In this document: piece by piece, positions 3,040 through 59,401 of the stretch
Layout of the letters: each line of letters opens with the position of its first letter
Numbering within the stretch: position 1 is the first letter of the stretch
NCBI GenBank assembly: GCA_964539635.1
Contig: CAZIJN010000005.1
Span: forward strand, 78,765 to 142,764
Length of the DNA stretch: 64,000 bases
Source of the DNA: an uncultured Desulfobacterales bacterium
GTDB taxonomy: Bacteria; Desulfobacterota; Desulfobacteria; Desulfobacterales; Desulfobacteraceae
Direction: 5' to 3'
Notes under the pieces: generated by a model
What the model saw: only the letters and a program-made list of their open reading frames with translations
Database searches by the model: none
What the model was told of the DNA's origin: nothing
Position numbers and translations under genes: made by a program

Positions 3040-5386
3040 TACAAGGAAGAGTTAATATAACCGAAGTCCCTGTATGTCTGCCTGATTGAGACAAAGCTCT
3101 ATTTTTACTATATTGTGGTTTGCTGTAGTCGTTATCAATAATGCTGTTGTTGGATTTAATCGAAAAAGAGGCACCAACCAACTTTGCCCTGTAGTTCATG
3201 ATTCGTATTCCCATTCCCTTAGTCTCAATCTTTCTGTCCATGCCGATTCCATTATCAGAGACAGAAAGATTGAGATTTTCATCTTCAGTATTGAGCGAGA
3301 CAACTATCTTATCTGCTTTTCCATGTCTTATCGCATTTTGGATTGCTTCTCCAACTATATGGTAGAGATTTATAACCATCATAGGATTTCGTATATCAAC
3401 TGTATTGGGGCATTCAAGAGAGCACTTAACCTGATATAAAAGTTCTATGTTGTTCACCAGCTCGCGTAATGATGACTCAAGACCGTAATCAAAATAGGCA
3501 GGACAAAGCCCTCTTGCCAAACGTCTTGTTTTTGAGATCGCCTCTTTTATAAGCTCTGTAATTTTATCGGATAGATTACAAGCATCGTAAGAGTAGTGCT
3601 GAACCTTTCGTTTTAATACTTTAGTCAACCCCTCGATTCCAATCAGATGAGGACATAGATCGTCATGCAGATCATTTCCTATCTTCTGCCTCTCCCGCTC
3701 TCCAGTCTCCATTATGCTCTTTTCAAGAAATTTCACCTCAGATATATCACGATGCGTTACAACGCTGCCTAAAGGCTGTCCATATTTATCTCTATAAACA
3801 GACCCTCTGATACTTACATCAATAAATCTGCCTGACTTTGATCTTCTTTTTGTCTCTGTTATTGAGACAGGCTCTCCTTTTAAGATCATCTTAATCGCAT
3901 TCATTGTCTCTTGCCAATCCTCTGCAGGAACAAAGTTATCTATTGTGCGACCAACGCTCTCTTCCAATGTGTAACCAAAAACTCGTGTAAAAGCAGGATT
4001 AAGATAGCTCACCTCTCCGTTCATATTGTAAACAATAATCGGATCAGGAGTTGCCTCCATTACAGAGCGGTACTTCTCCTCACTAAGCTCAAGAGCCTCT
4101 TGTGCAAGTTTTCTCTCTGCTATTTCTGCTTGAAGGGTTTTGTTGTAGCGTTCAAGTTTTTCCATAAATGAGTTGTAGTAAAAGGCAAGCTGTCCTACCT
4201 CGTCATCTGAATCTAAAGTCACAAGCCTATCGGAAAAACCATCGTTAATCTCTTGATTAAAGCGGCTCATTAACTCTCGCAGAGGTTTTGTAATTGTGGA
4301 GCTTAAAAGAAATGTGATTGGAATAAAAATGATAAGAGATGCAAATCCCATAACAAGTATTATATTTTTAATAATATTAAGCGGGGAGTAGAACTCATCA
4401 AGATAGCTTGCAGATGCAACTATCCACTCATATTCAGGAATAGCGTTAAATATCACAAGTTTTTTTCTTAAATGTTTATCGTTTGGATTTTTCCACTCAT
4501 AGATAAGTTTGCCGTTTTTCTGTTTGAGCATCTGCTGATAAAAACTTGAAGAGAATCTTTTATCTTTAAATACATTTATCCCCTCAAGTTCAGGGTGGAT
4601 AATAACATTTCCTTTCATATCCATAACATACGAGTAACCAGTCTTTCCAAATCTCTGGCTTAAGATACTCTCTTTAAAGTCGCTGATATTTACAAGCTGT
4701 TCAAACTCTTTTCTGTATGACGATACTGTTATCAGCCAGTCCCATGGCTCAAAATAGTTGATATATAGTGCTTTTGGCAGAGGAGAAGCATCTTCTGGGT
4801 TTTGCCAAAAGTATTCAATATATCCTGTTTTAATGGTGATCATCTGTTGTACAAACTGATGATCAGATATATCAAGTCCTTCTGATAATCTTGGGTGTTT
4901 GAGCACTTTGCCTTTTCCGTCAAGTATGCACAGATATCCTGTAGTTCCGACTTTCTGGCACAAAATAATTTCAGCAGACAGAGATTTTGCCTCCTCAAGA
5001 GTAATTTCTCCCCTTTGTTGTCGATTGTACAGATGCTGGATAATTTCGTAATTTTTTTCTGCAGTTGCCCTGATATGGTTTTTTATTGATACAGATACTG
5101 CTGTCTTTACGTTGTTTAGTATAGCTGTTGTGGAGTTTTTTAGCTCGCTCTCAATATTGTTTTCAACTGTGGATTTTACAATGTAGTAGAGTATAAAACT
5201 TGCAATACCCATTATTACAATAAAAGTCGCGGAGTATATAAAGAGAAGTTTGTAACGTATTCTAAAGTTTTTAACAAAGCTAAGAGGATTTATCTTATAT
5301 ATTGTTTTTATGGAGTCTATTCCAATTTTTACTAATCTATCTTTTAAACTATGCTCTTGTACATTTTTATAGCTTTTTCCATACAT
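2999..5386 (-). CDS. Sensor histidine kinase (Cache-HAMP-PAS-HisKA_3-HATPase); true start may be further downstream
   Basis: Two TM segments, YFEPWDW Cache motif, DEVGQLA HAMP, PAS, ERERQKIGNDLHDDL H-box, EAIQNAIRHG, DNGIG. Confidence 0.88.
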   Translation of the reverse strand: MYGKSYKNVQEHSLKDRLVKIGIDSIKTIYKINPLSFVKNFRIRYKLLFIYSATFIVIMGIASFILYYIVKSTVENNIESELKNSTTAILNNVKTAVSVSIKNHIRATAEKNYEIIQHLYNRQQRGEITLEEAKSLSAEIILCQKVGTTGYLCILDGKGKVLKHPRLSEGLDISDHQFVQQMITIKTGYIEYFWQNPEDASPLPKALYINYFEPWDWLITVSSYRKEFEQLVNISDFKESILSQRFGKTGYSYVMDMKGNVIIHPELEGINVFKDKRFSSSFYQQMLKQKNGKLIYEWKNPNDKHLRKKLVIFNAIPEYEWIVASASYLDEFYSPLNIIKNIILVMGFASLIIFIPITFLLSSTITKPLRELMSRFNQEINDGFSDRLVTLDSDDEVGQLAFYYNSFMEKLERYNKTLQAEIAERKLAQEALELSEEKYRSVMEATPDPIIVYNMNGEVSYLNPAFTRVFGYTLEESVGRTIDNFVPAEDWQETMNAIKMILKGEPVSITETKRRSKSGRFIDVSIRGSVYRDKYGQPLGSVVTHRDISEVKFLEKSIMETGERERQKIGNDLHDDLCPHLIGIEGLTKVLKRKVQHYSYDACNLSDKITELIKEAISKTRRLARGLCPAYFDYGLESSLRELVNNIELLYQVKCSLECPNTVDIRNPMMVINLYHIVGEAIQNAIRHGKADKIVVSLNTEDENLNLSVSDNGIGMDRKIETKGMGIRIMNYRAKLVGASFSIKSNNSIIDNDYSKPQYSKNRALSQSGRHTGTSVILTLPCIKENSSSPHCKEY

Positions 5387-6128
5387 TCTTCACCTGCTTT
5401 AATGTATTTTCAAGATCGCCGGAATTATCAATTACAAAGTCAGCATATTGTATCTTATCATCAATTGGAAGTTGAGATTTGATCATAGAAGCTGCTCTAT
5501 CTTCATCAATATTTTCTCTCTGCATCAGCCGTTTTAGCTGATTTTCAGAAGAGAGATAGATAATAACTATCTTATCAAACAGGTTTTGAAGGTTCATCTC
5601 AATCATAAGCGGAATCACAGCAATGATAACTCTTTTTCCACTATTTGAATCGTCTGGACTCTTTGAATTGTCTGAACTATCTGAACCATCAAACTCTCTC
5701 TTATTTGTCTTATAATAGTTCACCTTGTCGCAAAAGAGCTTAAATATTGCAGGGTGAGTCAATTTTTCAAGCACCCTTCTCTTCTGTTTATCTTTAAAGA
5801 CAATCTTTGAAAGAGCGTTTCTATCCAAATATCCGTTTTTATCAAGAATGCCGGGACCAAAGTGGGATACTATATTGTTAAAAGATTTGGTTCCCGGTTC
5901 AACAGCCTCTCTTGCCAAAATATCAAAATCGATAATTTGTGCACCACACTGTCTGAACATCTCTGCTACAGTTGTTTTACCGCCAGCAATACCTCCTGTA
6001 AGACCGATAAGCTCTTGCTGTCCGTTTTTAATCATATCAAGATTTATATGAAAGTCTCTTAACTGACCTTCATTTTTGGCTGTGTGATTTATCGCATGGT
6101 CGTTATATCCAACCTCTTTTTTATCCAT
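5367..6128 (-). CDS. coaE: Dephospho-CoA kinase with N-terminal and internal insertions
   Basis: IGLTGGIAGGKTT, LEKLTHP, SQLPIDDKIQYADFVIDNSG. Confidence 0.92.
   Translation of the reverse strand: MDKKEVGYNDHAINHTAKNEGQLRDFHINLDMIKNGQQELIGLTGGIAGGKTTVAEMFRQCGAQIIDFDILAREAVEPGTKSFNNIVSHFGPGILDKNGYLDRNALSKIVFKDKQKRRVLEKLTHPAIFKLFCDKVNYYKTNKREFDGSDSSDNSKSPDDSNSGKRVIIAVIPLMIEMNLQNLFDKIVIIYLSSENQLKRLMQRENIDEDRAASMIKSQLPIDDKIQYADFVIDNSGDLENTLKQVKNVWKKL
6043..6108 (-). repeat. Intragenic ~60-bp module, copy in coaE
   Basis: 6043-6067 is the exact reverse complement of 11923-11947 (gtcagttaagagactttcatataaa); the adjacent aacgaccatg...aatcacacag..aaaaatgaa segment also matches recC. Confidence 0.85.
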
Positions 6129-6367
6129 CTAAAATCTCCTATTCTTTCCGCATTAGTATGAAGAGTATCCATTGGTTATAGATAACTTGAACCATTCAAA
6201 TATAATGATATTTATCTTTATCTATCAAAGTCAAGACATGTTAAAATAAATATGATATTTTGTTAAATTATTGATACCGATCCTCAAAGTAAAAAATATC
6301 ATAATGACTTTTCTTGCTTTGAGGATTTTATATTAAAAATAGAGATAAAAAAGGTTTATCATACAAT

Positions 6368-8071
6368 ATGAAGTATTGTGAAATTTCATTAAAGATGCCG
6401 ACATATTATGATGATGCTCAGATTAGACAGGCAATATTAAAATATTTAAAAATAGATAGCAGCAGCATTAATAGTAGTTGTTGTCTTGAATTTGATAAGT
6501 CATCTGAATTAAATCAAAAGGCTGAACTACCTGAAATAACTGATAAAGAGTTCCAATTTAAGATTCTTAACAAGAGCCTTGATGCACGAAAAAAGAGCGA
6601 TATCCACTGGGTTATAAAGGTTGCAGTTACATCTGATCCTGATGAGCTACGCATAAAACCCGAGCTTGATATTGAACATCGTAAGAGATCGCAACGAGTT
6701 GTTGTTGCAGGCAGCGGTCCATCAGGTTTTTTTGCAGCGTATGTTTTGCAAAAAGCAGGCTTTAATACCACCATAATCGAGAGAGGCTCTGAAGTAAAAA
6801 AGCGTGAGGCATCTATAAAGGAGTTTGAATCTACAGGCAGGTTCGACCCTGTAACCAACTACGCTTTTGGTGAAGGGGGAGCTGGAACATTTTCTGATGG
6901 AAAACTTACATCAAGAAGCAAACATATCAGCAAAGAGAAAGAGTTTGTTCTATTAAGTTATGTTCAAGCAGGAGCACCCGAAGAGATACTCTACATGGCA
7001 CATCCGCACCTTGGCAGCGATAACTTAAAGCAGATTGTAAAAAATCTGAGAAAGTCGTTCATCAATATCGGCGGCACAATTTTGTTTGAAACCATGCTCA
7101 AAGATTTGAAGATTAAAAACAGCACGGTTTTAGGAGTATGTTTATCATCTGTAAATAGTGAGTCTTTACAGGAAATTGAAGCAGATCAAGTTATAATTGC
7201 ATCTGGTCACTCTGCCTATGAGACCTACAGAATGCTTATGTCAAAAGGCGTTCTGTTTAAAACCAAAAATTTTGCTGTCGGCTGCCGGGTTGAACACCCT
7301 CAAGAGCTTATAAATATTGCTCAGTGGGGAACAAAATCCTTAAAAGGCGTTAAAGCTGCTGAATACCGCCTCACATCAAGAGGAGATGGACAGCTTCCAG
7401 TTTATACATTCTGCATGTGCCCGGGAGGTGTTATAGTTCCATCAACAGCTTATGAAAATGCAAATATTGTTAACGGCATGAGCAGGTATCAGAGAAATGG
7501 AAATTTTGCCAATGCTGCCTGTGTTGCAGGCGTTAATCCTGACTATTTAATTGAAAAAAAAGGTGCAATATCATGCTTAGGAAAAAATAATATCTCAAAA
7601 TTAAAAGAGGAGAGAGAAGCAGAGAGGATTTTAGATTGGTTGGAGAGTCTTGAGCACGATTTTTACAAATATTCAGATGGATATGCTGCACCCTGCTGCA
7701 CTATCCAAAGTTTTATTGACAAGAAATTGACCAATAAACGCTCTGATGTCAACCGATTAGATTCAAGCTATCCCTTAGGATTAAAGATTGCACCTTTGTG
7801 GGAGCTTCTGCCGCTTGAGATAAGCAATTCAATCTGTGAGGGTTTAAAGGATTTCAGCCGGAAAATAAGAGGATTTGAGAGAGGAATAATAATGGGACTT
7901 GAGAGCAAGACCTCTTCTCCTCTCTCTGTGGTTAGGGATAAGAGCGGCTGCTGTATAGGATTTGATAATCTCTATATGACAGGCGAGGGAAGCGGACATG
8001 CAGGAGGTATTATCTCCAGTGCATCAGACGGTATAAAAGCTGCCGTTTCAATTATAAATAGATACAATTAA
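6368..8071 (+). CDS. FAD/NAD(P)-dependent oxidoreductase, uncharacterised family
   Basis: VVVAGSGPSG, FGEGGAGTFSDGKL, FCMCPGG, GEGSGHAGGIISSASDG. Confidence 0.82.
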   Translation: MKYCEISLKMPTYYDDAQIRQAILKYLKIDSSSINSSCCLEFDKSSELNQKAELPEITDKEFQFKILNKSLDARKKSDIHWVIKVAVTSDPDELRIKPELDIEHRKRSQRVVVAGSGPSGFFAAYVLQKAGFNTTIIERGSEVKKREASIKEFESTGRFDPVTNYAFGEGGAGTFSDGKLTSRSKHISKEKEFVLLSYVQAGAPEEILYMAHPHLGSDNLKQIVKNLRKSFINIGGTILFETMLKDLKIKNSTVLGVCLSSVNSESLQEIEADQVIIASGHSAYETYRMLMSKGVLFKTKNFAVGCRVEHPQELINIAQWGTKSLKGVKAAEYRLTSRGDGQLPVYTFCMCPGGVIVPSTAYENANIVNGMSRYQRNGNFANAACVAGVNPDYLIEKKGAISCLGKNNISKLKEEREAERILDWLESLEHDFYKYSDGYAAPCCTIQSFIDKKLTNKRSDVNRLDSSYPLGLKIAPLWELLPLEISNSICEGLKDFSRKIRGFERGIIMGLESKTSSPLSVVRDKSGCCIGFDNLYMTGEGSGHAGGIISSASDGIKAAVSIINRYN

Positions 8072-8076
8072 GATGG

Positions 8077-8775
8077 ATGGACACCCTGAAAAACGAAATT
8101 AACAAGATAAACAATCAGAAACAACAGAGATTGTATAAAACAACAGAAGGTAAAATTCTCTGGATAGGTATTTTTCTCACTTTGCTGCTTATAGGTATAA
8201 TTGTTTATTATCTAATTACAGAGCCTTCAAAAGCCAAGATAATTACCCTTGTCTTTTTTGCCCACACCTTTGGAGGCAGGGCTGCCGGCGTTGGTTTGTG
8301 CATTATGGAGAAGCTCGATTTTTTTACTACACTAATTTACAATTTTTTTATTGAAATTCAATTACTTGCCCTTACCTACTCTATTTTTGTCCTTGCAATC
8401 ACAAATTATATAAAAATTCCATGGGTTCTTCGTATTGCAAATGATATGAGAGATAACGCTGACAAACATAAGGATAAAATTGCTAAATACGGCTGGATAG
8501 GTATATTTTTGTTTGTGCTTGCTCCATTTCCGGGAAGCGGTCCTGTAGGGGGTTCTATACTTGGATATCTCCTTAAAATGAGGCTCTCACACAACTTCAG
8601 TGCAGTATTATCAGGCACATTTTTGGCAATTTTGCTATGGGTTCTATGTTTTGATTTTCTCAAGGAGTATCTTTATATAATTCAGTATATTATAGCTGCG
8701 ATCATCATTTTTGTTCTATTTTCGCATTTTAACACCATAAAAAACTGGTTTACCAATAAAAATTCAAAATATTAA
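8077..8775 (+). CDS. Small multi-drug export-type membrane protein
   Basis: KYGWIGIFLFVLAPFPGSGPVGGSILG motif; several TM helices. Confidence 0.7.
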   Translation: MDTLKNEINKINNQKQQRLYKTTEGKILWIGIFLTLLLIGIIVYYLITEPSKAKIITLVFFAHTFGGRAAGVGLCIMEKLDFFTTLIYNFFIEIQLLALTYSIFVLAITNYIKIPWVLRIANDMRDNADKHKDKIAKYGWIGIFLFVLAPFPGSGPVGGSILGYLLKMRLSHNFSAVLSGTFLAILLWVLCFDFLKEYLYIIQYIIAAIIIFVLFSHFNTIKNWFTNKNSKY

Positions 8776-8828
8776 AAATAGAAAAAAGAGGTTATCAAAT
8801 CTTTAAATATCTTAAGTTGGGGAAGATA

Positions 8829-11800
8829 ATGACAGGTATAAAACTTTATAGAAGTAACAGCGTTGAAGAGTTAGCTGATGCTTTAGCAGACAGCATACAA
8901 TCGCCGCTTGCTTCACCGTTTGAACCAGAGATAATTTTAGTCCAAAGTCTTGGAATGGCAAAATGGGTCAATCTGGAACTTGCAAAACGGCTTGGTGTAT
9001 TTGCAAACAGCAGTATGGTTTTTCCCAACGCCCTTATAAACAGCCTTCTTTCCAAAGTGCTTCCTAATATAGATGAAAAAGTTTTTCTTGATAGAGAGAT
9101 ACTTGCATGGATGATACTTGATCGTCTGCTCAACTCTAACCATTTAAAGGGTAAATTTAACCATTTGGAAGAGTATTGCAGCGGCAGAGATAAAAGTTTC
9201 GATGAAAACGAAAGAAAGTTTAGAGCGTTCCAGCTTGCCCGCCAGCTTGCCATGACCTATGATCAATATCTTACCTACAGACCCGATTATATTCAGTCGT
9301 GGGAGAAGATGGAATCTGACTATGAGTTTAAGCGAAAAATTGAATCTGAGTTTCAAGAAAAAATGAAGCCTGAGTTTGAAGAAAAGATTAAATATGACTC
9401 TAAAAAATATAACTGGTATTGGCAGGCAGAACTTTGGCGATCTATTTGTAAAGAAAATATTGCTTGTGGAGAAAATATTGAAACAGAATCTCAAGATGTA
9501 AAAGAGTTTACCCATAAAGCTGTTAAATATAATAAATTTTTGGAGGTTATGAAAAATCAAAACATTCAGATTAATTGCCTGCCAGAGAGGATATCTGTGT
9601 TTGGAATACCATCTCTTCCCCCATTTCATTTGAACATATTGGCATCTCTCTCTCCAATGGTTGATATTTCGTTTTATGTTATGACTCCTGCAAAAGGTTA
9701 TTTCAGCGATTTAAGATCAGCTAAACAGAAGATGAAGATCGAAAATAGAGAGATAACAGATAAAGATAGCGGGAATAACTTACGATACTCATCAGAATTA
9801 TTACATATAGAGACTGGAAATCCTCTTTTAGCATCTCTTGGCAGAGCTGGCGCAGATTTTATGGACGCTCTTCTTGATTACGATAATCTTGAGGATATTG
9901 ACCGAAAATTTCTCGAACCTGCTGGAAACACAATACTTGAAATGGTGCAAAAAGATATCCTTCTTATGGAGGAGAGAGCGGCTGCACATCTCACTCTAAA
10001 GGATATAGATAAAGATCGCTCTATTATCATAAACTCATGCCACAGCCCGATGAGAGAGGTTGAAGTTCTTAACGACTATCTTCTTGATCTATTCAATTCA
10101 AATTCTGATATCACTCCGGCAGATGTTTTGGTTATGACTCCAGATATAGAGAGCTATGCACCTTTTATTCGGGCAGTTTTCACAACTCCTGAAAAGGAGA
10201 GGTTAAGGATTCCGTTCTCTATTGCAGATTTGAGTATAAAGAGCGTAAGCCGTGCAGTAGATGTGTTTATGAATATACTATCTCTGCCTGAAACCCGTTT
10301 TGAAGCAGCTTATATTATGGATATTTTAGAGTGTGACGATGTTGCACGCTGTTTTAACCTTGAGGCAGCAGACATTGATCTTATAAGAGAGTGGATTAAA
10401 CAGACAGCCATAAGATGGGGAGAAGATGGTAAATACAGAGAGAAGTTAGGGCTTCCTAATTTTGATCAGAACAGTTGGAGAGCAGGTCTTGACAGGCTTA
10501 TTGCTGGTTATGCAATGACAGGAGAATCAGAGCAGTTTTTCACGGCAAATCATAATGGAGACAATATAGATATTTTACCCTGCGATATTGTTGAGGGAAA
10601 TTCAAGTGCTGTTCTCGGCTCTCTTGCCCGTTTTTTCAACATATTGTCAATTACAGCAGAACAGATGACAGTTGATAAGAGCTTGTCTGAATGGAGCGAT
10701 TTTCTTATGGAGGCTGCCAACAACTTCTTCCTTCCAGATCAAGAGAGTTCAGGCATGATTCAGCAGATAAGAAACACGATAAATGATCTTAAGCAGATGG
10801 AGGAGCGTACAGGATTTAGATCATCTGTAAACTCAAGGATTATAAAGAGTTGGTTAGATCAAGAGATCGGAAAAGAGTATCACGATTCAAACTTTCTCAA
10901 CGGCGGAGTGACATTTTGTGCGATGCTTCCTATGAGAAGCGTTCCGGCAAAAGTTATCTCTATTTTAGGGCTTAATGATAAGACCTTTCCAAGAATAGAC
11001 AACTCTCCAAATTTTGATCTGATAAAACAGCGTCAAAGAAGAGGGGATCGCTCTTTGCGTAATGAAGATAGATACCTTTTCCTTGAAACTATTATCTCGG
11101 CAAAAGAGAAACTCTATTTAAGCTATACAGGACAGGGAATAGAGGATAACAGCGTAATTCCTCCATCTGTGGTTATAAGCGAACTTATTGACTATTTGGA
11201 TAGAGCTTTTGTTGTGCAGGGATCTGATTTAGATAGAACTCAGTTATCGTCATACATAGTTGTACAACACCCGCTTCAGCCGTTTAACCCTCTATATTTT
11301 CAACAGGGAGCATCTTTTGATTCAGCTGATTGCCAACAGGATTCATCAAAACTTTTAGGAAATATTTCAAATAGCTCTGTTTCTTCAAGGCTGTTTAGTT
11401 ACTCTAAAGATAATTTATTTGCTGCATCAGCGTTAAGATCAGATAAGATATCGTTAGAGCCGTTCGTATCTGACAGCGTACAACAAAGTGAAGATCAAAA
11501 GGATAATAGAGCATATGAACAGCTGAATTCTAATCTGATATCACTAAATAATCTTATAGCTTTTTTCAGTGCACCACAAAAATATTTTCTCGAAAACAGC
11601 TTGGGAATCTATCTTAAAGATCAGGCTGAAACGCTTGACGATTGTGAACTGTTCAGCCTTGACTCTCTTGATAATTACAATCTGAAAGATGATATGCTCA
11701 AGCGTAAGATAAAAAATAGTAACATAGAAATTAAGCCTTACAAAGCAAGAGGCATTCTTCCCCACGGAACAGCGGGCAGAGCTTTTTTTCAAGAGAGTTC

Positions 11801-12542
11801 AAACATGGTCAACGCCTTTTACGGTAAAATAGAACCATATGTCACAAACGGGCGATCCGGCTCTGTTGAAGTTGACATTACATATAACTACCATGAAATA
11901 AATAACGCAACGAGCGGTGAAAGTCAGTTAAGAGACTTTCATATAAACGACCATGGAATAGATCACACAACGAAAAATGAAAGCCTTAATATAAACGGCT
12001 GGAGATTAAAGGGGATAATCTCAGATATATGGGGCGATCAGTTGGTAAGATTTAGGATAGCATCTGTAAAGCCAAAGGATATTTTAAGGGCATGGCTTAT
12101 CCATCTTGCATATGCCTGTTCTTGTAAATGCAAGATAGAGAAATCTCAAACGCTTCTTATTGCTACTGATAAAAGCTATATTTTTACAACTCCTGAAAAT
12201 CCTCTCTCTATTTTGGACAGGCTCATAACTATCTATAGAAACGGCATAAAAACTCCAGTTAAATTTTTTCCAGCATCTTCAATGGCATATGCAAATAGTT
12301 TGTTTAGTCAAACAAATAATAATAAAGCTGATTCATCACAAACCGATTTGATATCAAACGGAATTAAAAAGGCAAATAATGAGTTTTTAGGTAATATGAA
12401 TAAGCAGGGAGAATGTGAGTCAGAAGAGGTTAAACTCTGCTTCAGACACATTGAGAGAGAATTAATATTAGACAAAGAGTTCTGCTTATTATCTGAAGAT
12501 GTTTTTATGCCTGTTTTCGCTCATATGGAGGAGATAAAATAG
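8829..12542 (+). CDS. recC: Exodeoxyribonuclease V gamma subunit
   Basis: LYRSNSVEEL, ILVQSLGMAKW, CHSPMREVEVL, VMTPDIESYAP, FCAMLPMRSVP, EDRYLFLE; ATG 8829 preferred to TTG 8817. Confidence 0.95.
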   Translation: MTGIKLYRSNSVEELADALADSIQSPLASPFEPEIILVQSLGMAKWVNLELAKRLGVFANSSMVFPNALINSLLSKVLPNIDEKVFLDREILAWMILDRLLNSNHLKGKFNHLEEYCSGRDKSFDENERKFRAFQLARQLAMTYDQYLTYRPDYIQSWEKMESDYEFKRKIESEFQEKMKPEFEEKIKYDSKKYNWYWQAELWRSICKENIACGENIETESQDVKEFTHKAVKYNKFLEVMKNQNIQINCLPERISVFGIPSLPPFHLNILASLSPMVDISFYVMTPAKGYFSDLRSAKQKMKIENREITDKDSGNNLRYSSELLHIETGNPLLASLGRAGADFMDALLDYDNLEDIDRKFLEPAGNTILEMVQKDILLMEERAAAHLTLKDIDKDRSIIINSCHSPMREVEVLNDYLLDLFNSNSDITPADVLVMTPDIESYAPFIRAVFTTPEKERLRIPFSIADLSIKSVSRAVDVFMNILSLPETRFEAAYIMDILECDDVARCFNLEAADIDLIREWIKQTAIRWGEDGKYREKLGLPNFDQNSWRAGLDRLIAGYAMTGESEQFFTANHNGDNIDILPCDIVEGNSSAVLGSLARFFNILSITAEQMTVDKSLSEWSDFLMEAANNFFLPDQESSGMIQQIRNTINDLKQMEERTGFRSSVNSRIIKSWLDQEIGKEYHDSNFLNGGVTFCAMLPMRSVPAKVISILGLNDKTFPRIDNSPNFDLIKQRQRRGDRSLRNEDRYLFLETIISAKEKLYLSYTGQGIEDNSVIPPSVVISELIDYLDRAFVVQGSDLDRTQLSSYIVVQHPLQPFNPLYFQQGASFDSADCQQDSSKLLGNISNSSVSSRLFSYSKDNLFAASALRSDKISLEPFVSDSVQQSEDQKDNRAYEQLNSNLISLNNLIAFFSAPQKYFLENSLGIYLKDQAETLDDCELFSLDSLDNYNLKDDMLKRKIKNSNIEIKPYKARGILPHGTAGRAFFQESSNMVNAFYGKIEPYVTNGRSGSVEVDITYNYHEINNATSGESQLRDFHINDHGIDHTTKNESLNINGWRLKGIISDIWGDQLVRFRIASVKPKDILRAWLIHLAYACSCKCKIEKSQTLLIATDKSYIFTTPENPLSILDRLITIYRNGIKTPVKFFPASSMAYANSLFSQTNNNKADSSQTDLISNGIKKANNEFLGNMNKQGECESEEVKLCFRHIERELILDKEFCLLSEDVFMPVFAHMEEIK
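9324..9395 (+). repeat. In-frame 24-bp tandem repeat x3 (degenerate) in recC
   Basis: gagttt...-initiated units at 9324, 9348, 9372 encode EFKRKIES/EFQEKMKP/EFEEKIKY. Confidence 0.75.
11888..11983 (+). repeat. Intragenic 60-bp module, ~1.6 tandem copies in recC
   Basis: Period-60 similarity between 11888-11923 and 11948-11983; contains the 25-mer shared exactly with coaE. Confidence 0.82.
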
Positions 12543-12543
12543 A

Positions 12544-15500
12544 GTGATGAATAAATTTGATATAACATCAGCACCGTTAAAAGGCGAAACTGTTATTGAG
12601 GCAAGTGCAGGAACAGGAAAAACCTATGCAATAGCAGGGCTTTTTCTACGTCTTATTGTTGAGGGTAATCTTAAAGTAAATCAGATACTTGTCGTAACTT
12701 TTACTGTTGCTGCAACAGATGAATTAAGAGATAGAATACGGCGGAGGCTCAGAGAGGGATTAAATGCACTAATAGACGGCTATCAAGGCAGTGACGCTGT
12801 TCTTGCTTGGCTTGCGGGTAAATATAAAAACAACATAACTATCCGAAATCGTTTAAAAGAGGCTATTATCTGTTTTGATGAGGCAGCAATTTTTACTATT
12901 CACGGATTCTGTCAGAAGTTATTATCTGAAAATGCTTTTGAAAGCAGCACCCTTTTTGATACAGAACTTCTTTTAGATGACAGCGATATCTTAATTGAAG
13001 TCTGCCGCGATTACTACAGACGACATTTTATTACGATGTGTCCGCTTCTATTCAGCAATCCTCAAATTAAACAAATAACGCCTGACTCTCTTTTAAAGCT
13101 GATAAAATGCCTCTCAATTGATCCTGATTTTACTATTATACCTAAAATTACTGACATATGCGATAATCCAAACGACAGCCAAACTGCAATCAAATCAGCA
13201 GTTGAAGAGCTTGAAACGCTTTTCAGCTCAATCAGGCAGATGTGGATAAATCAAGGAAAAGAAATTTCAAATATTATTCTAAAAGCACAGGATAACAAGG
13301 CTTTTAACGGAACATACATAAAGAAAACTACATACATAACTGCTATAGCTGAAATGGACACTTATGTTAAAAATGGAAATTTATGGGATATTGTTAAGCC
13401 TTCCAAAATTGTAAAAGACGATAAAGCTAAAAAAGACGATAAAATTAAAAAAGACGATAAAATTAAAAAAGACGATAAAATTGAAAAAACTATAAGTATT
13501 GAGAAACTTACAAACAGCTTTATGCAGGAGAAAGCAAAAGACAGCTCAAAACTTCCAGCCCACCAGATTTTTCAAGATATTGAGGATTTTATCAATCTTC
13601 TTGATAAAACTCAGCATAGAATCAATAAATTCTGCTTATGCTTAAAATTATATTTTTTGAAATCTGCCAAAGATTCAATGAAAAAGAGCAAAATGGCAAA
13701 AAATGTAAGAGCATTTGACGATCTTTTAGCTGCTATGCACAATGCAGTAGGAGATGGCAGCACTCCAATGGCTCGTGCAGTTAGAAATAGATTCTCTGCC
13801 GCACTTATTGATGAATTTCAAGATACAGACCCGCTTCAATACTCTATTTTTACAAATATCTTTAAATCAGATAATACTCTTCTCTATCTTATAGGCGATC
13901 CAAAACAGGCTATATACGGCTTTAGAGGTGCTGATATCTACGCATATCTAAAGGCTAAAAAGAGCGTAGATTCATCATACACTCTTGAGACGAACTGGAG
14001 ATCAGATGGCGGTCTTGTAACTGCTGTGAATAGCATTTTTGATTTAAAGGTGAAAAATCCTTTTGTTATTGACGGTATAGATTTTTCTCCTGTAAGCCAC
14101 GCTCCAGATAGAGAACAAGGCTCTCTATATATTTATATTAACCCCAATCCAGTTACTCCTATGAACGTAGAACTTATTCCAGTTGCTCCTATGAACGTAG
14201 AACTTATTCCAGTTACTCCTATGAACATAGCATTTATCGGCAGTAATTTATCGTCATCGGAAGAAGAATCGTCTAAAAAAGAGGCTGCTGGTTTTATAAC
14301 TAAAGGTGATGCAGAAACGTTTGCCGCTAAATATACAGCTTCTAAAATAAGCGAAATGATAAATAAGAGTTCTTATCGAAAGACAGTTATAATAAAGGAT
14401 AAAAAAGCTGCTGAAAAGCCAGTTATAATAGATGATAAAAAAGCTGCTGAAAAGGCAGTTATAACAGATGCTAAAGATTTATCTCCAGAAGATATAGCTG
14501 TGCTTGTAAGAACCAACCGGCAGACTTTAATCGTTTTAGAAGAGCTGCGAAAACTTTCCATTCCGGCAGTTATCTATAGTGCCGGCTCTGTTTATGCTGA
14601 AGAAGAGGCTATGGAGATTGAACGATTTATGAGGGCTGCTGCCGAGCCGTCAAATGAAAGAAATCTTAAAGCAGCTCTTATTACTGGTTTTTTCGGGTTT
14701 AACAGCAGTCAGATATTTGAGCTTGCAGTTGACGAAAAACGGTATGACTCTTTGCAGAACGAATTTTTAGAGTATAACAGATTATGGAGAAAATCGGGCT
14801 TTATCTCCATGTTCCGCTATATGGTAGGAAAAAGACGAGTTCGCCAAAGAGTGCTTAAATATAAATCAGGCGAGCGTAAACTTACCAACTATCTGCATAT
14901 TGCAGAGCTTCTGCATATTGCTGATATAGAGCTGAAACCCGGAATTGACAGGCTTATAAACTTTTTAGCAAAAAGAAGGCTTGCAGTTGATAAAGATGAG
15001 AAGACCTCTTCTAATGAGTATAGACTCCGCCTTGAAACAGATGAAAAAGCGGTGAAGATAATTACTGTTCATAGAAGCAAAGGGCTTGAATTTCCAGTAG
15101 TTTTTTGTCCATATCTTTACCACTCAAGAGATTCAAGCAGAGACGATATTTTGAAATTTCACGATAATAATGGAACTCAGACTCTTGATATTGGTTCTGA
15201 CGATTTTCCTGAAAATAGACAAAAGATGCACAAAGAGGAGTTTGCAGAGTCAATACGCCTTGCCTATGTTGCACTTACAAGAGCAAGATATGCCTGTTTT
15301 ACAATTTGGGGACGAATAAATAAATCGGACAATAGTGCACTTGCATGGCTTTTTCATAACAGCTCTATTCAAAATGCAATTGAAAGCACCACGTCTGATT
15401 GTGCTGGTTTTAAAAATTATGATTGGGAGAAGATGCGATCAGATATAAATATAATTGCTGATAATTCTAATAACACAATCAGCGTTGAAGTTATCAGCAA

Positions 15501-20928: not shown

Positions 20929-20970
20929 GGTTAATTCTCCTTAAATATGTTTATTGTTTTTTATATAAAA

Positions 20971-20999
20971 GCAGAGACGCATAGCCGTGCGTCTTCTAC
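20971..20999. repeat. GTAG-type REP-like palindrome
   Basis: Minus strand gtagaagacgcacggctatgcgtctctgc; same family as 50553 and 59323. Confidence 0.75.
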
Positions 21000-21138
21000 A
21001 TATCATCTCTGTCTCCTCTCCCACATCATCAACAATGTACTCGTAAAGGTTTGAATAATAATCAGACTGAAATAAAAAATAAGCTAAAACAAAGAACTTT
21101 ACAACCAAACAACCCTTAAAAAATGCTGATAAAAAATC

Positions 21139-23326: not shown

Positions 23327-23389
23327 CCCTTTTTTATCCATCGAATGCAGTGCACGTAACTTTTGTCCGTAAGTTCGATAGTGCTTTGC

Positions 23390-23605
23390 TCAGGCAGGTC
23401 TTCTGACTTTTGGCTCACCCTACTTGCAGCGTCTTCCCAACCTAATATAAAAACAGGTCAGTGACTTTAAATGCTGCGTTCGTCCCCAATTACAGCGGCG
23501 GGTCCGTCCCCGATTCTCACGGGGTTCCCTATTACGCTTTTAAAACAAGCAGCTTGATAAAAAAGTCTATTTTCTTAAAAATCAGCTTATTTTAAAGCAC
23601 CTGAA
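23390..23605 (-). ncRNA. Cobalamin (AdoCbl) riboswitch
   Basis: Minus strand aggtgc...aatagggaaccccgtgagaatcggggacggacccgccgctgta...gtcactg...gggaag...gtcagaagacctgcct (B12 box). Confidence 0.95.
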
Positions 23606-43467: not shown

Positions 43468-43537
43468 GCAGGATAGAAAAAAATAACTTAAGGATAGAAT
43501 CAGGATAGCTGAGAAGAGAGATTACAGCCGTATAGCC

Positions 43538-43628
43538 GCCGTGGGGCTGAAGCCCTCGGCTAACCATAAAAGAAGCCCTCTTAAGAGGGCTTGGGTGAAA
43601 ATGCAGCCCTGAGCTTTAGCTCTGGGGC
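43538..43628. repeat. Triple-palindrome REP unit, copy 1 (91 bp)
   Basis: gccgtggggctgaagccctcggc / aagccctcttaagagggctt / gccctgagctttagctctggggc. Confidence 0.92.
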
Positions 43629-43674
43629 ATCAAAATCACGGATTAAATCAATTCATTTGGATAAAATAAAAATC

Positions 43675-44088
43675 ATGGCATTTTGGAAACTCTATTATCA
43701 TATTGTATGGGGAACAAAAAATAGGCTGCCATTAATCACAGAGCAAATAGAAGAACAATTGTATAAATATATAACAATGAAGAGTGAAGAGCTAAAAAGC
43801 ATTACCCATGCACTTGGCGGTATTGATGACCATATTCATATTATTGTATCCATTCCGCCTGCATTATCTATTTCAGAATATGTTGGTAAAATAAAGGGCA
43901 GCAGTTCACATTTTGTGAACTATAGATTTGATAATTCCCAATTTTTCGCTTGGCAGGAGAAATATGGAGTATTTTCGCTTGGGTCTAAACAGTTGGATAA
44001 TGCTGTGGATTATGTGGTTAAACAGAAAGAGCATCACTATACAGGGGCAATCATACCTGTTTTGGAAAAATATGATGATAAAGATTAA
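43675..44088 (+). CDS. tnpA: IS200-like Y1 HUH transposase (TnpA / REP-associated RAYT-like)
   Basis: YYHIVWGTKNR, DHIH (HUH), IKGSSS, WQEKYG, catalytic YVVKQKEHH; ATG 43675; same REP unit on both sides. Confidence 0.9.
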   Translation: MAFWKLYYHIVWGTKNRLPLITEQIEEQLYKYITMKSEELKSITHALGGIDDHIHIIVSIPPALSISEYVGKIKGSSSHFVNYRFDNSQFFAWQEKYGVFSLGSKQLDNAVDYVVKQKEHHYTGAIIPVLEKYDDKD

Positions 44089-44099
44089 TTCATATTTCA

Positions 44100-44191
44100 G
44101 CCGTGGGGCTGAAGCCCTCGGCTAACCTTTAAAAGAAGCCCTCTTAAGAGGGCTTGGGTGAAAAGATAGCCCAGAGCTTTAGCTCAGGGGC
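44100..44191. repeat. Triple-palindrome REP unit, copy 2 (92 bp)
   Basis: Near-identical direct repeat of copy 1, 11 bp after the tnpA stop. Confidence 0.92.
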
Positions 44192-44208
44192 GGGGGGGAT
44201 ATGTTTCT

Positions 44209-44362: not shown

Positions 44363-44602
44363 ATGCTTAATATAACAATTCCAGAGAAACTGACGTTAAA
44401 GATTAATCAATTTGCGGGCATTTTCCATCAAACACCTGAAGAGTTCATTATTGAGATATTAGAAGAACGTCTTTAGCATGATAGTGCATATAAAGAGACT
44501 CTCTATCTGGCTCAATCAAATGTTAATAAGCAGCGTCTTGACAGGGCTGTTGCAGATATAAACAAAGGCAGATATGAAGTTCATGGGTTATTAAATGATT
44601 AG
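44363..44602 (+). pseudogene. YefM-like antitoxin with one in-frame TAG (44474-44476)
   Basis: MLNITIPEKL...EERL*HDSAYKETLYLAQSNVNKQRLDRAV..; ETLYL..N..RL is the YefM C-terminal pattern; overlaps yoeB start. Confidence 0.72.
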
Positions 44603-44843
44603 CTGGCACTCTCACGCATGGGAAGATTATCTTTATTGGCAGGAAAACGATAAGCGTATTGTAAAACGTATAAATATGTTGATTAAAGATATATTGTGAA
44701 ATCCTTTTGACGGAATAGGTAAGCCTGAATCTTTAAAATATGAATGGAGTGGATTCTGGAGCAGACGCATAAATGATGAACACAGGCTTGTTTATGCAAT
44801 AAATAATCTTGGCGTGCATCAAAATCACGGATTGGCAGGATAG
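44595..44843 (+). pseudogene. yoeB: Txe/YoeB toxin with one in-frame TGA (44697-44699) and a repeat-derived C-terminus
   Basis: [59 protein letters not shown]; normal C-terminal ..HY absent. Confidence 0.85.
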
Positions 44844-44880
44844 AAGGATAAGGAGGGATAGCCGATGATGTGTTTTTGCA

Positions 44881-44972
44881 GCCGTGGGGCTGAAGCCCTC
44901 GGCTAACCTTTAAAAGAAGCCCTCTTAAGAGGGCTTGGGTGAAAAGATAGCCCTGAGCTTTAGCTCGTGGGC
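44881..44972. repeat. Triple-palindrome REP unit, copy 3 (92 bp)
   Basis: Differs from copy 2 only at a few positions in the last palindrome. Confidence 0.92.
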
Positions 44973-45027
44973 GGTAAATGATGTTAATTTGTGATTCTGA
45001 TAGTTTTAGATTAGGAGGATAACTATA

Positions 45028-49375: not shown

Positions 49376-50506
49376 ATGAATAAGCGATATTATACGAGAC
49401 TCTTTTGCACTGCTATTGTGTCAACTGCACTACTAACCGGCTGTGTAGTATATCAAGACCCGGCTACAAGCAGCTATACTGATAATTATACAAACAGCTA
49501 TGATTATAATAATTCTTATAGTTCTGACTCGCCGCCTCCGGTTGAATTTTACAATTCACCAGAATTGGTAGTTATACCAGAAACTTATGTGTATGCTGTT
49601 CCTGATGCCACTGTTGATATCTTTTTTTATGACGGCTGGTGGTGGAGACCTTGGAATGGCAGATGGTATCAATCACGACACTATAGTTCCGGCTGGAGAC
49701 ACCATAGAGGTGTGCCGAATTTTTATAGAACTATACCCGGTAACTGGAGAAGTGAATATAGAAACCGCCGATGGAGAGGACATGAATGGAATCATAAGAG
49801 AATACCTTATAAACATGTAGAGCGTAACTGGAGACAGTGGGAAAATAAAAAACATTGGGAGAGAGAGCACCATTGGGGTGTGAAAGATTTTAAGCCGAAC
49901 AGAAGACACGATCAACCGGATAGGCGTTTTTCTCCTGATCGGAATCATAATAACACCCGCCCTGACAGATTCGAGCCAAGAAGAGATAACAATATCAGAC
50001 ATGATAGAATTGAACCAAGAAGAGATAATAACCAAAATCGCCCTGACAGGTTTGAGCCAAGAAGAGATAACAATATCAGACATGATAGGATTGAGCCAAG
50101 AAGGGATAATAACCGCCCTGACAGGTTTAACCCAAATAATGATAACCGCAACCGTCCTGACAGGTTTAATCCAAATAATGATAACCGCAACCGTCCTGAC
50201 AGGATTGAACCAAGAAATGATAACCGCAACCGTCCTGACAGGTTTAAGCCAAATAATGATAACCGCAACCGTCCTGACAGGTTTAAGCCAAGACCAGATA
50301 ATAACGTCCAAAAGGATAGAGTTATGCCGGAACGAGAAAATCCTAATCGAAGAGAAAGACAAGATCGAAGGCATAGAGATGACGCTGTTCAGCCTCCCCA
50401 ATCTCCTCGCCATGAACAGAGAAAAATAGAAGATGCAAGAGAGCAGATACTTGAAAATAAAAGACGTTATGATGAACAATTAGAGATTAATAAAGACAGC
50501 CCCTGA
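49376..50506 (+). CDS. Lipoprotein with Trp/Arg-rich region and long R/D/N/P repeat tail
   Basis: Lipobox LLTGC; YDGWWWRPWNGRWY..; tandem RPDR repeats; GGAG RBS. Confidence 0.75.
   Translation: MNKRYYTRLFCTAIVSTALLTGCVVYQDPATSSYTDNYTNSYDYNNSYSSDSPPPVEFYNSPELVVIPETYVYAVPDATVDIFFYDGWWWRPWNGRWYQSRHYSSGWRHHRGVPNFYRTIPGNWRSEYRNRRWRGHEWNHKRIPYKHVERNWRQWENKKHWEREHHWGVKDFKPNRRHDQPDRRFSPDRNHNNTRPDRFEPRRDNNIRHDRIEPRRDNNQNRPDRFEPRRDNNIRHDRIEPRRDNNRPDRFNPNNDNRNRPDRFNPNNDNRNRPDRIEPRNDNRNRPDRFKPNNDNRNRPDRFKPRPDNNVQKDRVMPERENPNRRERQDRRHRDDAVQPPQSPRHEQRKIEDAREQILENKRRYDEQLEINKDSP
49958..50308 (+). repeat. In-frame tandem repeat, nine units of 12-14 codons
   Basis: R(P/H)DR(F/I)xPxxDN.. units; the last five have a 39-bp period (gataaccgcaaccgtcctgacagg..). 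Confidence 0.9.
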
Positions 50507-50552
50507 TATATATACTCTATAATAGGGCATTAATTGAGCTTTTCACATTTAA

Positions 50553-50580
50553 GTAGAGACGCACGGCTGTGCGTCTCTAT
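50553..50580. repeat. GTAG-type REP-like palindrome, likely bidirectional terminator
   Basis: gtagagacgcac-ggct-gtgcgtctcta between convergent genes. Confidence 0.8.
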
Positions 50581-50584
50581 TTTA

Positions 50585-55701: not shown

Positions 55702-56097
55702 CTATTTTTTTAATTTTCCTTCCTGAATAACCTTATTTGCATGAGCATCTTGGAGTTTGTAATACAGCTCATCAATATTCATTGGTTTCATCAGATAATC
55801 GTAAGCTCCGCACTCCATTCCCTGAACCGCAACCTCAATGTTGGCGTGTCCTGTGAGCATGATGACCTCAATCAGTCCATTGATCTCTTTTATCTTTTTA
55901 AGGGTCTCAAGACCATTTATCCCGGGCATTTTCATATCAAGCACTACCACATCAACCGGAGATTCTTTTATGATGGAGAGAGCCTTTTCGCCATTGCCAG
56001 CCATCAAAATATTGAGCTGGCGCTTTTTAAGTCTTTTACCTAAAGGCACTAAAAAATCCTCTTCATCATCAACCAGCAATACATTGAATCCGTCCAT
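55702..56097 (-). CDS. Stand-alone response regulator receiver
   Basis: LLVDDE, LDMKMPG, YLMKP; ATG 56097 after GGAGG. Confidence 0.9.
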   Translation of the reverse strand: MDGFNVLLVDDEEDFLVPLGKRLKKRQLNILMAGNGEKALSIIKESPVDVVVLDMKMPGINGLETLKKIKEINGLIEVIMLTGHANIEVAVQGMECGAYDYLMKPMNIDELYYKLQDAHANKVIQEGKLKK

Positions 56098-56136
56098 TTG
56101 TATCCCCTCCTTCCATAAGCAATACATTCAATCCGA

Positions 56137-56535
56137 TCATTGATACTTTTTTCTATTTTCATGAATTTCCCTGATTTTTTTTACCAGCTCCTCAAAATCA
56201 TAGGGCTTGGGAAGGCAATCTACAGCACCGGAATCAATACCTTTTTTTGCATCTTCAAGAGAACCGTGTCCGGTAATCATGATGACTGGCATATCAATAC
56301 CTATCTCCTTTAATGCTTTTAAAACTTCAATGCCATCCATGAACTCCATTTTGAGATCAAGCAGCATTATATCGAACTTTTGTCTCTTGCACTGCTGAAT
56401 TGCTCCGTCTCCACTTAGTGCAGTGGTAACGTTGATATTGCGTTTGCCAAGGCGTTTGGAAAGCACCTGAACAAATCCCTCTTCGTCATCTACCAGAAGC
56501 AGTTCAATGGTGTCAGATTTAGTCTGATTTTCCAT
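56137..56535 (-). CDS. Stand-alone response regulator receiver
   Basis: LLVDDE, LDLKM, CLPKP; ATG 56535 after AGGAG. Confidence 0.9.
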   Translation of the reverse strand: MENQTKSDTIELLLVDDEEGFVQVLSKRLGKRNINVTTALSGDGAIQQCKRQKFDIMLLDLKMEFMDGIEVLKALKEIGIDMPVIMITGHGSLEDAKKGIDSGAVDCLPKPYDFEELVKKIREIHENRKKYQ

Positions 56536-56570
56536 GATCTTGTCTCCTATCTCTGATGAGATCGTTATTT

Positions 56571-57011
56571 TCAATCGAAACCTTTTCTACGCATAATATC
56601 TTTCATTCTTGCTTCAACTATCTTGCTCTCCTGCGCCCGTTTTTTTGCAACAGCTTCACCCACTTTAGTAACAAGAACCTCCATGTCACAAGGCTTCATA
56701 AGATAGTCAAATGCCCCTTTTTTCATACCGTCAATAGCTGATGGAACTGTCGCGTGTCCTGTCAGCATAATAACTTCAACTAATGGATATTTACGCTTAA
56801 TCTCTTCAAGTGTCTCAATTCCGTCCATTCCGGGCATCTTTACATCAAGAATAACAACTTCTGGATCAAAGTTTCCTGACCCTAATCTTTCTAATGCCTC
56901 CATTCCGCTGTGAGCCATCTCTACGTTAAAATTACGTTTTTTCAGGCGTTTGCTGATTGCTTCGATAAAGGGAACTTCATCATCGACTAAAAGCAGTTTT
57001 GGTTCGTTCAT
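56571..57011 (-). CDS. Stand-alone response regulator receiver
   Basis: LLVDDE, LDVKMPG, YLMKP. Confidence 0.9.
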   Translation of the reverse strand: MNEPKLLLVDDEVPFIEAISKRLKKRNFNVEMAHSGMEALERLGSGNFDPEVVILDVKMPGMDGIETLEEIKRKYPLVEVIMLTGHATVPSAIDGMKKGAFDYLMKPCDMEVLVTKVGEAVAKKRAQESKIVEARMKDIMRRKGFD

Positions 57012-59266: not shown

Positions 59267-59322
59267 TAAATGCGGGGGGGGTGTAAGGTTTTAGGTTTTA
59301 TTTAAAATAGAGTTAAAACAAT

Positions 59323-59348
59323 TAGAGACGCACGGCTATGCGTTTCTA
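59323..59348. repeat. GTAG-type REP-like palindrome (degenerate)
   Basis: tagagacgcacggctatgcgtttcta. Confidence 0.75.
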
Positions 59349-59401
59349 ATTGTTTGTAATTAAATATATTGGAAAATTTCGTATAAAAATCTATTTTTAT
59401 A

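Follow-up and report, generated by a model that had tools for sequence, protein, structure and literature searches.

A short hairpin-bearing dispersed repeat residing in frame in coaE, recC and other genes of Desulfamplus-like bacteria

Introduction

Short palindromic repeats that colonise housekeeping proteins in frame are best known from Rickettsia, whose palindromic elements (RPEs; Ogata et al. [quoted passage not shown] That review regards in-frame fusions by intragenic MITEs as 'not unusual', with RPEs as the extreme case, and also describes SPRITE, which is terminator-like, and Chunjie, a MITE of Geobacter that is compatible with operons (PMC10969869). Here we describe a repeat of comparable behaviour from free-living, widespread anaerobes. 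It lies within coaE and again within recC on a 64-kb stretch of contig CAZIJN010000005.1 (called the window throughout), which comes from an uncultured Desulfobacterales bacterium, a wastewater relative of sulfate reducers. The repeat is bounded, dispersed and hairpin-bearing; it resides in frame in several genes, and its units are gained and lost between strains. It belongs to a family of short, AT-rich, non-coding dispersed repeats of a Desulfamplus-like clade, present at about 20 copies per genome, and we think it quite likely that these are copied to new sites and that their contributions to proteins are passenger peptides.

Sequences and searches

The source metagenome of the window is run X1 (SRR8925775), in which the organism is covered about 48-fold; run X2, cited repeatedly below, is SRR30726425. 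The family was sought with exact-seed scans (four public scans, over one genome per species, metagenome contigs and viral contigs) and then with nhmmer. Loci with flanks were taken from three genomes: that of the window's species (including L013 and L014) and the metagenome-assembled genomes nHGRbin17 ('Desulfamplus sp.', JADFZJ01) and CAYRLG01 (uncultured Desulfobacterales). The latter two are the nearest species representatives to the window, their RecC being 58-62% identical. Element edges were set from X1 contigs aligned to the coaE copy, at the positions where matching of the other copies ends.

Results

One element in coaE and recC

Exactly two occurrences of the 25-mer GTCAGTTAAGAGACTTTCATATAAA are present in the window, one at 6043-6067 on the minus strand and one at 11923-11947 on the plus strand; none is expected (100 shuffles). 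This exact match had been pointed out in a first-pass annotation of the window; it proves to be the core of a 66-nt similarity with 82% identity (6043-6108 minus, 11882-11947 plus). The coaE open reading frame (ORF) (5367-6128, minus strand, 253 aa) matches Pfam CoaE from residue 40, and the recC ORF (8817-12542, plus strand, 1,241 residues) matches RecC_N and RecC_C, with the element-derived residues, about 1023-1060, falling in RecC_C. Both copies thus lie within long ORFs with Pfam matches, and they share one stop-free element frame (CoaE ..YNDHAINHTAKNEGQLRDFHIN.., RecC ..YNYHEINNATSGESQLRDFHIN..), as the same annotation had stated. Scanning the 64 kb gave no further copy outside these two ORFs.

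The coaE copy (6043-6108, minus strand; CoaE residues about 8-29) is the 66-nt sequence ATATAACGACCATGCGATAAATCACACAGCCAAAAATGAAGGTCAGTTAAGAGACTTTCATATAAA; strain L009 has the same sequence, and L103 departs from it at 1 nt. Its hairpin occupies 6048-6073 (minus strand), with stem ATGAAGGTC/GACTTTCAT, including one G-T pair, closing the loop AGTTAAGA; as RNA it folds at -10.3 kcal/mol (z = -3.0 versus shuffles). The recC gene holds about 1.8 head-to-tail units with a period of 60. Unit A (11882-11947, plus strand) is a full element with its hairpin at 11917-11942 (plus strand; stem GTGAAAGTC/GACTTTCAT, loop AGTTAAGA); the whole 66 nt folds at -14.2 kcal/mol (z = -4.3) as this hairpin plus a 3-bp helper stem. 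Unit B (11948-11995, plus strand) follows with nothing between the two, and has a 54-nt variant form, lacking 12 nt of the hairpin tip. The 60 bp proposed earlier for the unit is the period of the recC tandem; the element itself, with edges at 6043 and 6107/6108, measures 65-66 nt. The further proposal that the two copies are circular permutations of one tandem unit does not hold: CoaE has a single linear unit, and the peptides look permuted because the RecC string begins in the middle of unit A and continues into unit B.

Element anatomy

In X1, 17 contig pieces (46-50x each) match only 6043-6107/6108, with a depth ratio of about 22, and beyond these edges agreement with the flank consensus is only about 0.5. 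Because the matches of all 17 pieces stop at 6043 and 6107/6108, we place the element at 65-66 nt. The AT-rich consensus is ATATAACNNCCATGCAATGACTTACACAACGAAAAATGAAAGTCAGTTAAGAGACTTTCATATAAA, of the form ATATAAC...CATATAAA. Each end bears an ATATAA-like hexamer. Hardly any variation is seen at the right end, CATATAAA; on the left the hexamer is degenerate, 8 of 18 copies having exactly ATATAA and 15 of 18 keeping ATAA. Near the 3' end is a perfect 9-bp inverted repeat with an 8-nt loop (ATGAAAGTC-AGTTAAGA-GACTTTCAT), overlooked when the repeat was described as not obviously palindromic. The consensus folds at -10.6 kcal/mol (z = -3.4), and just a 26-nt local hairpin forms. The opposite strand reads as a hairpin followed by TTTTT; a second hairpin, on this antisense strand, forms only with G-U pairs, and its covariation is not above controls. 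Two of the six reading frames of the consensus are stop-free. No terminal inverted repeats were found, the aligned ends ATATAACNNNCATG.. and ..GACTTTCATATAAA having a trivial ATAT alone in common.

An Rfam search with the element returned no family. A sigma-70 promoter within it was considered and rejected, as TATAAA is present with no usable -35 and promoter prediction finds none there. Also set aside, on reading the sequence, were an integron attC site, a CRISPR repeat, the template of a diversity-generating retroelement, a XerCD/dif site and the target of a class C group II intron: the ends are unpaired, arrays and cassettes are lacking, and the copies are not positioned as these would require.

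A dispersed family in genes and spacers

With their flanks, 21 element-bearing loci holding 22 copies were recovered from the three Desulfamplus-like genomes, and the window's own genome has about 17-22 copies. Identity is 83-87% between copies of different genomes and 85-88% within one genome. The first-pass annotation had supposed a protein-invading repeat family in a Desulfobacterales lineage, and the survey bears this out: copies are many, some of them intergenic and others in frame in unrelated genes. Neither are there just two copies, nor is one of the pair a chimera; copies are far more numerous and come from independent assemblies.

About one-third of the copies are inside genuine genes. 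Six of these present the sense open frame: those in CoaE, RecC, a nonribosomal peptide synthetase (NRPS) adenylation domain (directly ahead of its AYIIYTSGSTG motif), a GT2 glycosyltransferase, a protein with an electron transfer flavoprotein (ETF) domain, and the n-region of a lipoprotein signal peptide, the last being a 54-nt variant. One more, in an SH3-domain protein, presents an antisense open frame, and its hairpin has decayed. The remainder are in short intergenic spacers. Eight or nine, in the sense orientation, occupy spacers of 96-150 nt that separate co-directional genes, ahead of argH, mlaC, rpoN, purC, an ATP-binding cassette (ABC) permease and the coaE of nHGRbin17. Four are antisense copies 0-60 nt past a stop codon; when the antisense face was scored as a terminator, L008 was called terminator-like, and the window copy and L021 were not. 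The 12-nt hairpin-tip deletion of unit B recurs in copy L022 of another genome, with a 5-bp mini-hairpin remaining.

The genes downstream of copies have no function in common, so we rejected the idea of a regulon or leader RNA. An exhaustive HMMER search with the RecC peptide against 1.84 billion representative proteins found RecC itself and two spurious low-complexity matches, and the module is therefore not a protein domain; a 44-aa dimer profile of the peptide module gave no match. Viral, plasmid and phage collections held nothing meaningfully similar to the element.

Insertion into RecC

Orthologue alignments of CoaE and RecC agree with the supposition that both segments are lineage-specific insertions. 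For RecC, orthologues at 58% and 55% identity (P0002 and P0004) lack the full 36-residue segment, as do all more distant RecC proteins (Desulfonema and others). Two orthologues at 54% identity retain a short IYNGSSD(Q/E)I, which may be an old remnant of it. In an AlphaFold2 model of the RecC C-terminal domain, strands 116-124 and 163-173 (numbered within that domain) flank the segment, which is a loop with a predicted local distance difference test (pLDDT) score below 50. Since the 1,241-residue ORF continues on both sides of it, the RecC copy is almost certainly translated; a candidate peptide from the segment is DFHINDHGIDHTTK.

Strain differences

Three strains with 97.8-98.6% nucleotide identity in recC have three RecC states: units A and B in the window, a hybrid unit in L009, and B alone in L103. 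The L009 orthologue (RecC 95% identical) lacks exactly 60 nt. One 60-nt period is missing in L009/X2, X3 and X7, unit A is absent from L103, and the two-unit allele occurs also in X8. The L009 hybrid contains the middle segment specific to A, which makes A+B the probable ancestral state, with one 60-nt period lost twice. CoaE likewise has one or two units across strains, a 60-nt tandem duplication being found in a groundwater strain (X5). All in-gene changes seen are multiples of three. Both genes thus carry an intragenic tandem repeat of period 60 with one or two units; this variation describes events after insertion and not the origin of the dispersed family.

The best sign of recent copying comes from X2, where a second locus, on a 43,936-nt contig, matches the coaE copy with 100% identity over 6043-6108 and no further. 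In X1, the closest other copy among those listed differs from the coaE copy at 8 positions over the full 65-66 nt.

Other strains have lost the coaE copy by replacement. The 102-nt segment at 6031-6132, comprising the ATG, the element and a second ATG, is replaced by a 2,902-nt segment in runs X13 (on a 6,749-nt contig) and X16 and in the major allele of X4 (on a 2,962-nt contig), with flanks otherwise identical or near-identical; X4 has the two alleles side by side, with depths of about 15 and 5. On the coaE strand the left end of the long segment is CTTAAATATATAAAGAAGCTATGAAAACAA. Judged by comparison with nHGRbin17, which has no such segment between the flavin adenine dinucleotide (FAD) gene and coaE, the 2,902-nt segment is derived. 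An independent element copy is present in the coaE 5' leader of nHGRbin17, and two insertions within a region of about 200 bp are unlikely to have arisen by chance at about 20 copies per genome.

Alternative explanations

A possible objection, foreseen in the first-pass annotation, is that coaE starts downstream of the module, at the ATG of MIKNG (6033-6035). The element would then sit in the coaE 5' leader untranslated, and RecC and the other internal copies alone would be protein insertions. A downstream start would still yield a CoaE of normal length, more distant CoaE proteins begin at about this position, and the element-encoded tail is predicted to be disordered (pLDDT below 50 for CoaE residues 1-24). 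The independent copy in nHGRbin17 also lies in a coaE 5' leader, 36 nt ahead of the ATG, and contains a stop in frame (L107 5900-5965 in JADFZJ010000002.1; this copy belongs to another subfamily, and the CoaE there is 56% identical). Finally, a wastewater metatranscriptome contig (X27), covering 5881-6197, has ACG for ATG at 6127. Yet the ACG variant comes from this single contig at depth 3, and the contig itself runs from the predicted transcription start near 6197 (promoter-like TTGACT/TATCAT at 6234-6205) through the element. The upstream ATG (6126-6128) has AGGAG 7 nt before it (6136-6140), whereas no Shine-Dalgarno sequence precedes the downstream one. No stop interrupts the frame across the element in any of the three strains that were compared (protein identity up to 91%), and in the strain with the 91%-identical CoaE conservation begins sharply at the ribosome-binding site, the leader just upstream being scrambled. 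All CoaE orthologues of the Desulfamplus clade have a poorly conserved N-terminal extension of 25-35 residues ending in I(D/N)IxxIKS. The window CoaE reads ..FHINLDMIKN.., so that the alternative start methionine falls within this motif; the extension is clade-wide, and the element in it is confined to the window's species. We therefore hold a MIKNG start to be rather unlikely, some doubt being left by the ACG reading, and translation of the coaE copy from the upstream ATG to be likely. Candidate peptides over the element region are EVGYNDHAINHTAK, NEGQLR and DFHINLDMIK.

A different question is whether the repeat is kept for a function of its own, as a mobile weak terminator or RNA-stability hairpin in the manner of the pneumococcal SPRITE or of REP (repetitive extragenic palindromic) sequences, with the coding copies as tolerated by-products. 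The antisense face, a hairpin with a T-run, would suit a terminator, as would the score of L008 and the four antisense copies shortly after stop codons; copies are about as alike between genomes as within one although RecC is only 58-62% identical, and the coaE 5' region was struck independently in two lineages. But the 8-9 sense-oriented copies in operon spacers form no terminator there, the AT-rich stem is weak (about -10 kcal/mol), covariation is absent, the neighbouring genes share no function, and hairpin-deleted copies persist, all of which makes such a function unlikely. A local in-frame minisatellite, with gene conversion between nearby loci producing the CoaE-RecC match and no mobile family behind it, would account for the 1.8 tandem units of RecC that vary by strain and for the CoaE duplication of one strain, in a neighbourhood whose genes are full of other in-frame tandem repeats. 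It is refuted by at least 19 further loci on different contigs of three genomes, mostly single units and many of them intergenic, and by the roughly 17 separate X1 contigs that carry copies; we give it hardly any credence. An assembly chimera joining repeat-containing reads is even less credible, indeed virtually excluded: short-read contigs of some runs do break at the repeat, but independent assemblies of at least eight metagenomes show identical structures for coaE and recC, and single contigs of even depth span both loci.

Several observations nevertheless weigh against parts of our preferred account, that of a mobile family with passenger peptides. The copy census is based on contig depth and seeds, short of a whole-genome scan. 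Changes in the main hairpin show covariation no better than shuffled controls, and hairpin conservation may reflect recent copying alone. In the 0.98 Mb of fetched loci we found no parent insertion sequence (IS), no longer element or half-elements sharing the ends, and no transposase associated with the ends. No empty site was recovered, so that target duplication and its absence are indistinguishable; presence or absence of RecC unit A fits insertion and deletion alike, insertion 3' of ATATAA giving the identical window sequence. The L009 hybrid requires two extra substitutions or gene conversion.

A possible route of spread

The 66-nt element is equivalent to a 60-nt unit set just 3' of an ATATAA-like site, and there is a 54-nt variant besides. 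As a guess, the unit would transpose as single-stranded DNA in a hairpin-dependent manner, by a Y1/HUH enzyme acting in trans, 3' of (T)ATAA and without target duplication. The missing terminal inverted repeats, the asymmetric end conservation, the clean junction of units and a Y1 gene in the window led us to this idea, which we put forward tentatively and at less than even chances. A target-duplicating transposase or recombination-based copying may be the mover instead. The earlier suggestion of a decayed IS or MITE end fares poorly, there being no terminal inverted repeats, no longer element in the 0.98 Mb and no plasmid, phage or viral match.

Most genic insertions would be lost, with selection removing stops, frameshifts and antisense terminators, and such a filter would give rise to the frame and strand bias and to a preference for tails and loops. 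Survivors would have a length that is a multiple of three (66, 60 or 54 nt), a stop-free frame, either sense (YN.HAMTYTTKNESQLRDFHI(N/K)) or once antisense, and a tolerant location, for example a surface loop, the n-region of a signal peptide or a tail at the N-terminus. The element adds about 38 residues to an inter-strand loop of RecC and would add about 22 to a disordered N-terminal tail of CoaE, these peptides probably being passengers with no functional domain. After insertion, head-to-tail units grow or shrink by exact 60-nt steps, producing the strain length differences. Antisense copies, with hairpin and then T-run, resemble weak intrinsic terminators in form and are for the most part found right after stop codons.

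The window's IS200-like Y1 transposase gene is at 43675-44088 (plus strand; Pfam Y1_Tnp, E = 4e-27). It is the only Y1 gene there, and, as a further point against the guessed enzyme, it is flanked by a different repeat family, a 99-nt GC-rich sequence with several hairpins (43532-43630, 44095-44193 and 44876-44974) in an arrangement like that of RAYT (REP-associated tyrosine transposase) genes and REP sequences. By contig depth the 99-nt repeat has about 14-29 copies per genome, and many contigs end in it. We rejected a link between the element and this transposase: the flanking repeats are of another family, and the 7-nt TTAAGAG that is all they share with the element is compatible with chance. 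Between the GC-rich repeats, at 44363-44830, are short ORFs that read, by sequence alone, like an antitoxin and a YoeB-type toxin with an internal stop.

In a bolder version of the account, which we consider improbable, the 60-nt unit would be active at present and rank with the smallest mobile units known. A Y1/HUH enzyme would carry it in single-stranded form to sites just 3' of ATATAA, its sequence would have been shaped to allow in-frame read-through, and its copies would make recombination hot spots. In that version the repeats may serve as landing pads for a larger mobile element, an idea suggested by the coaE 5' region having been struck in two lineages and by the 2.9-kb replacement of the copy and its flanks.

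Other features of the window

The window has further repeats. In-frame tandem repeats occur in housekeeping genes, in coaE (5640-5685) and in a recB-like gene (13405-13488, 14148-14237 and 14379-14475), with periods of 18, 18, 30 and 36 nt; the coaE repeat is +9, +27 or -27 nt different in length from strain to strain. Within the clade, CoaE orthologues carry unrelated repeat insertions of their own, for example VHKVDAI five times in D. magnetovallimortis. A GC-rich palindrome, AGAGACGCACGGCTGTGCGTCTCT, is present in three copies (20969-21000, 50551-50582 and 59320-59351) and may be a third small repeat family or a terminator family. At 49955-50305 is a long imperfect tandem array of about nine units, with periods of 39, 81 and 117 nt, rich in AACCG(C/T)CCTGACAGGTTT. 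Inverted repeats of 68-116 nt with 72-85% identity link 1-117 to 55887-56861, 56 kb apart, and are probably paralogous genes. A cobalamin riboswitch (Rfam RF00174, 100.8 bits) lies at 23377-23571 on the minus strand.

Discussion

The strain differences of exact 60-nt units, together with the fresh identical copy, mean that RPE-like movement and the tolerance of proteins to it can be studied in existing samples. RecC, CoaE and the NRPS adenylation domain offer natural sites of insertion tolerance. In practice, the repeat explains contig breaks and length differences in recC and coaE, and it warns annotators about the choice of start codon in coaE.

Bacterial MITEs (Correia, ERIC, BOX/RUP, Chunjie) resemble the element in being small, non-autonomous, AT-rich and multi-copy, and in occupying operon spacers without breaking operons and sometimes being fused in frame to ORFs. 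Unlike them, it lacks terminal inverted repeats, the 0.98 Mb yielded no parent IS for it, and it is much shorter than is typical. With REP/REPIN-RAYT systems and elements derived from IS200/IS605 it has in common a hairpin, the lack of terminal inverted repeats, an apparent position beside a short fixed motif, and a Y1 transposase gene in the window. It differs from REP/REPIN sequences in having no GT(A/G)G-type 5' motif beside the hairpin, in being AT-rich and in having about one-third of its copies inside genes; from the RAYT arrangement in that the window Y1 gene, the one such gene looked at, is flanked by another repeat; and from the IS200/IS605 type in having one clear hairpin, at the right end, instead of one at each end. 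Like a SPRITE-type terminator repeat, it has the form of a hairpin and T-run on one strand, and some copies come directly after stop codons; unlike in that repeat, most copies are in the non-terminator orientation or in genes, and the stem is weak.

The closest likeness in behaviour is to RPEs. Like these, the element is a short, dispersed, multi-copy, palindrome-bearing repeat without transposase coding, which occurs between genes and in frame in unrelated housekeeping genes, adding a conserved passenger peptide at tolerant, surface or disordered sites. RPEs are about 100-150 bp with a palindrome spanning the element; here the element is 66 nt (60-nt unit) and the palindrome is a local 9-bp hairpin of 26 nt near one end. 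Their hosts are obligate intracellular Alphaproteobacteria, whereas ours are free-living anaerobic Desulfobacterales of reactors and wastewater, with about 20 copies per genome and head-to-tail units that vary between strains; the comparison is one of described features, not of sequences. By their defining features the element is not a member of the RPE, MITE or REP families. What is of interest in it is modest: its very small size, the polymorphism that public metagenomes show between strains, and the fact that the coaE 5' region has been involved repeatedly. Functionally, and by analogy, this is the RPE story, a known kind of event in a new lineage.

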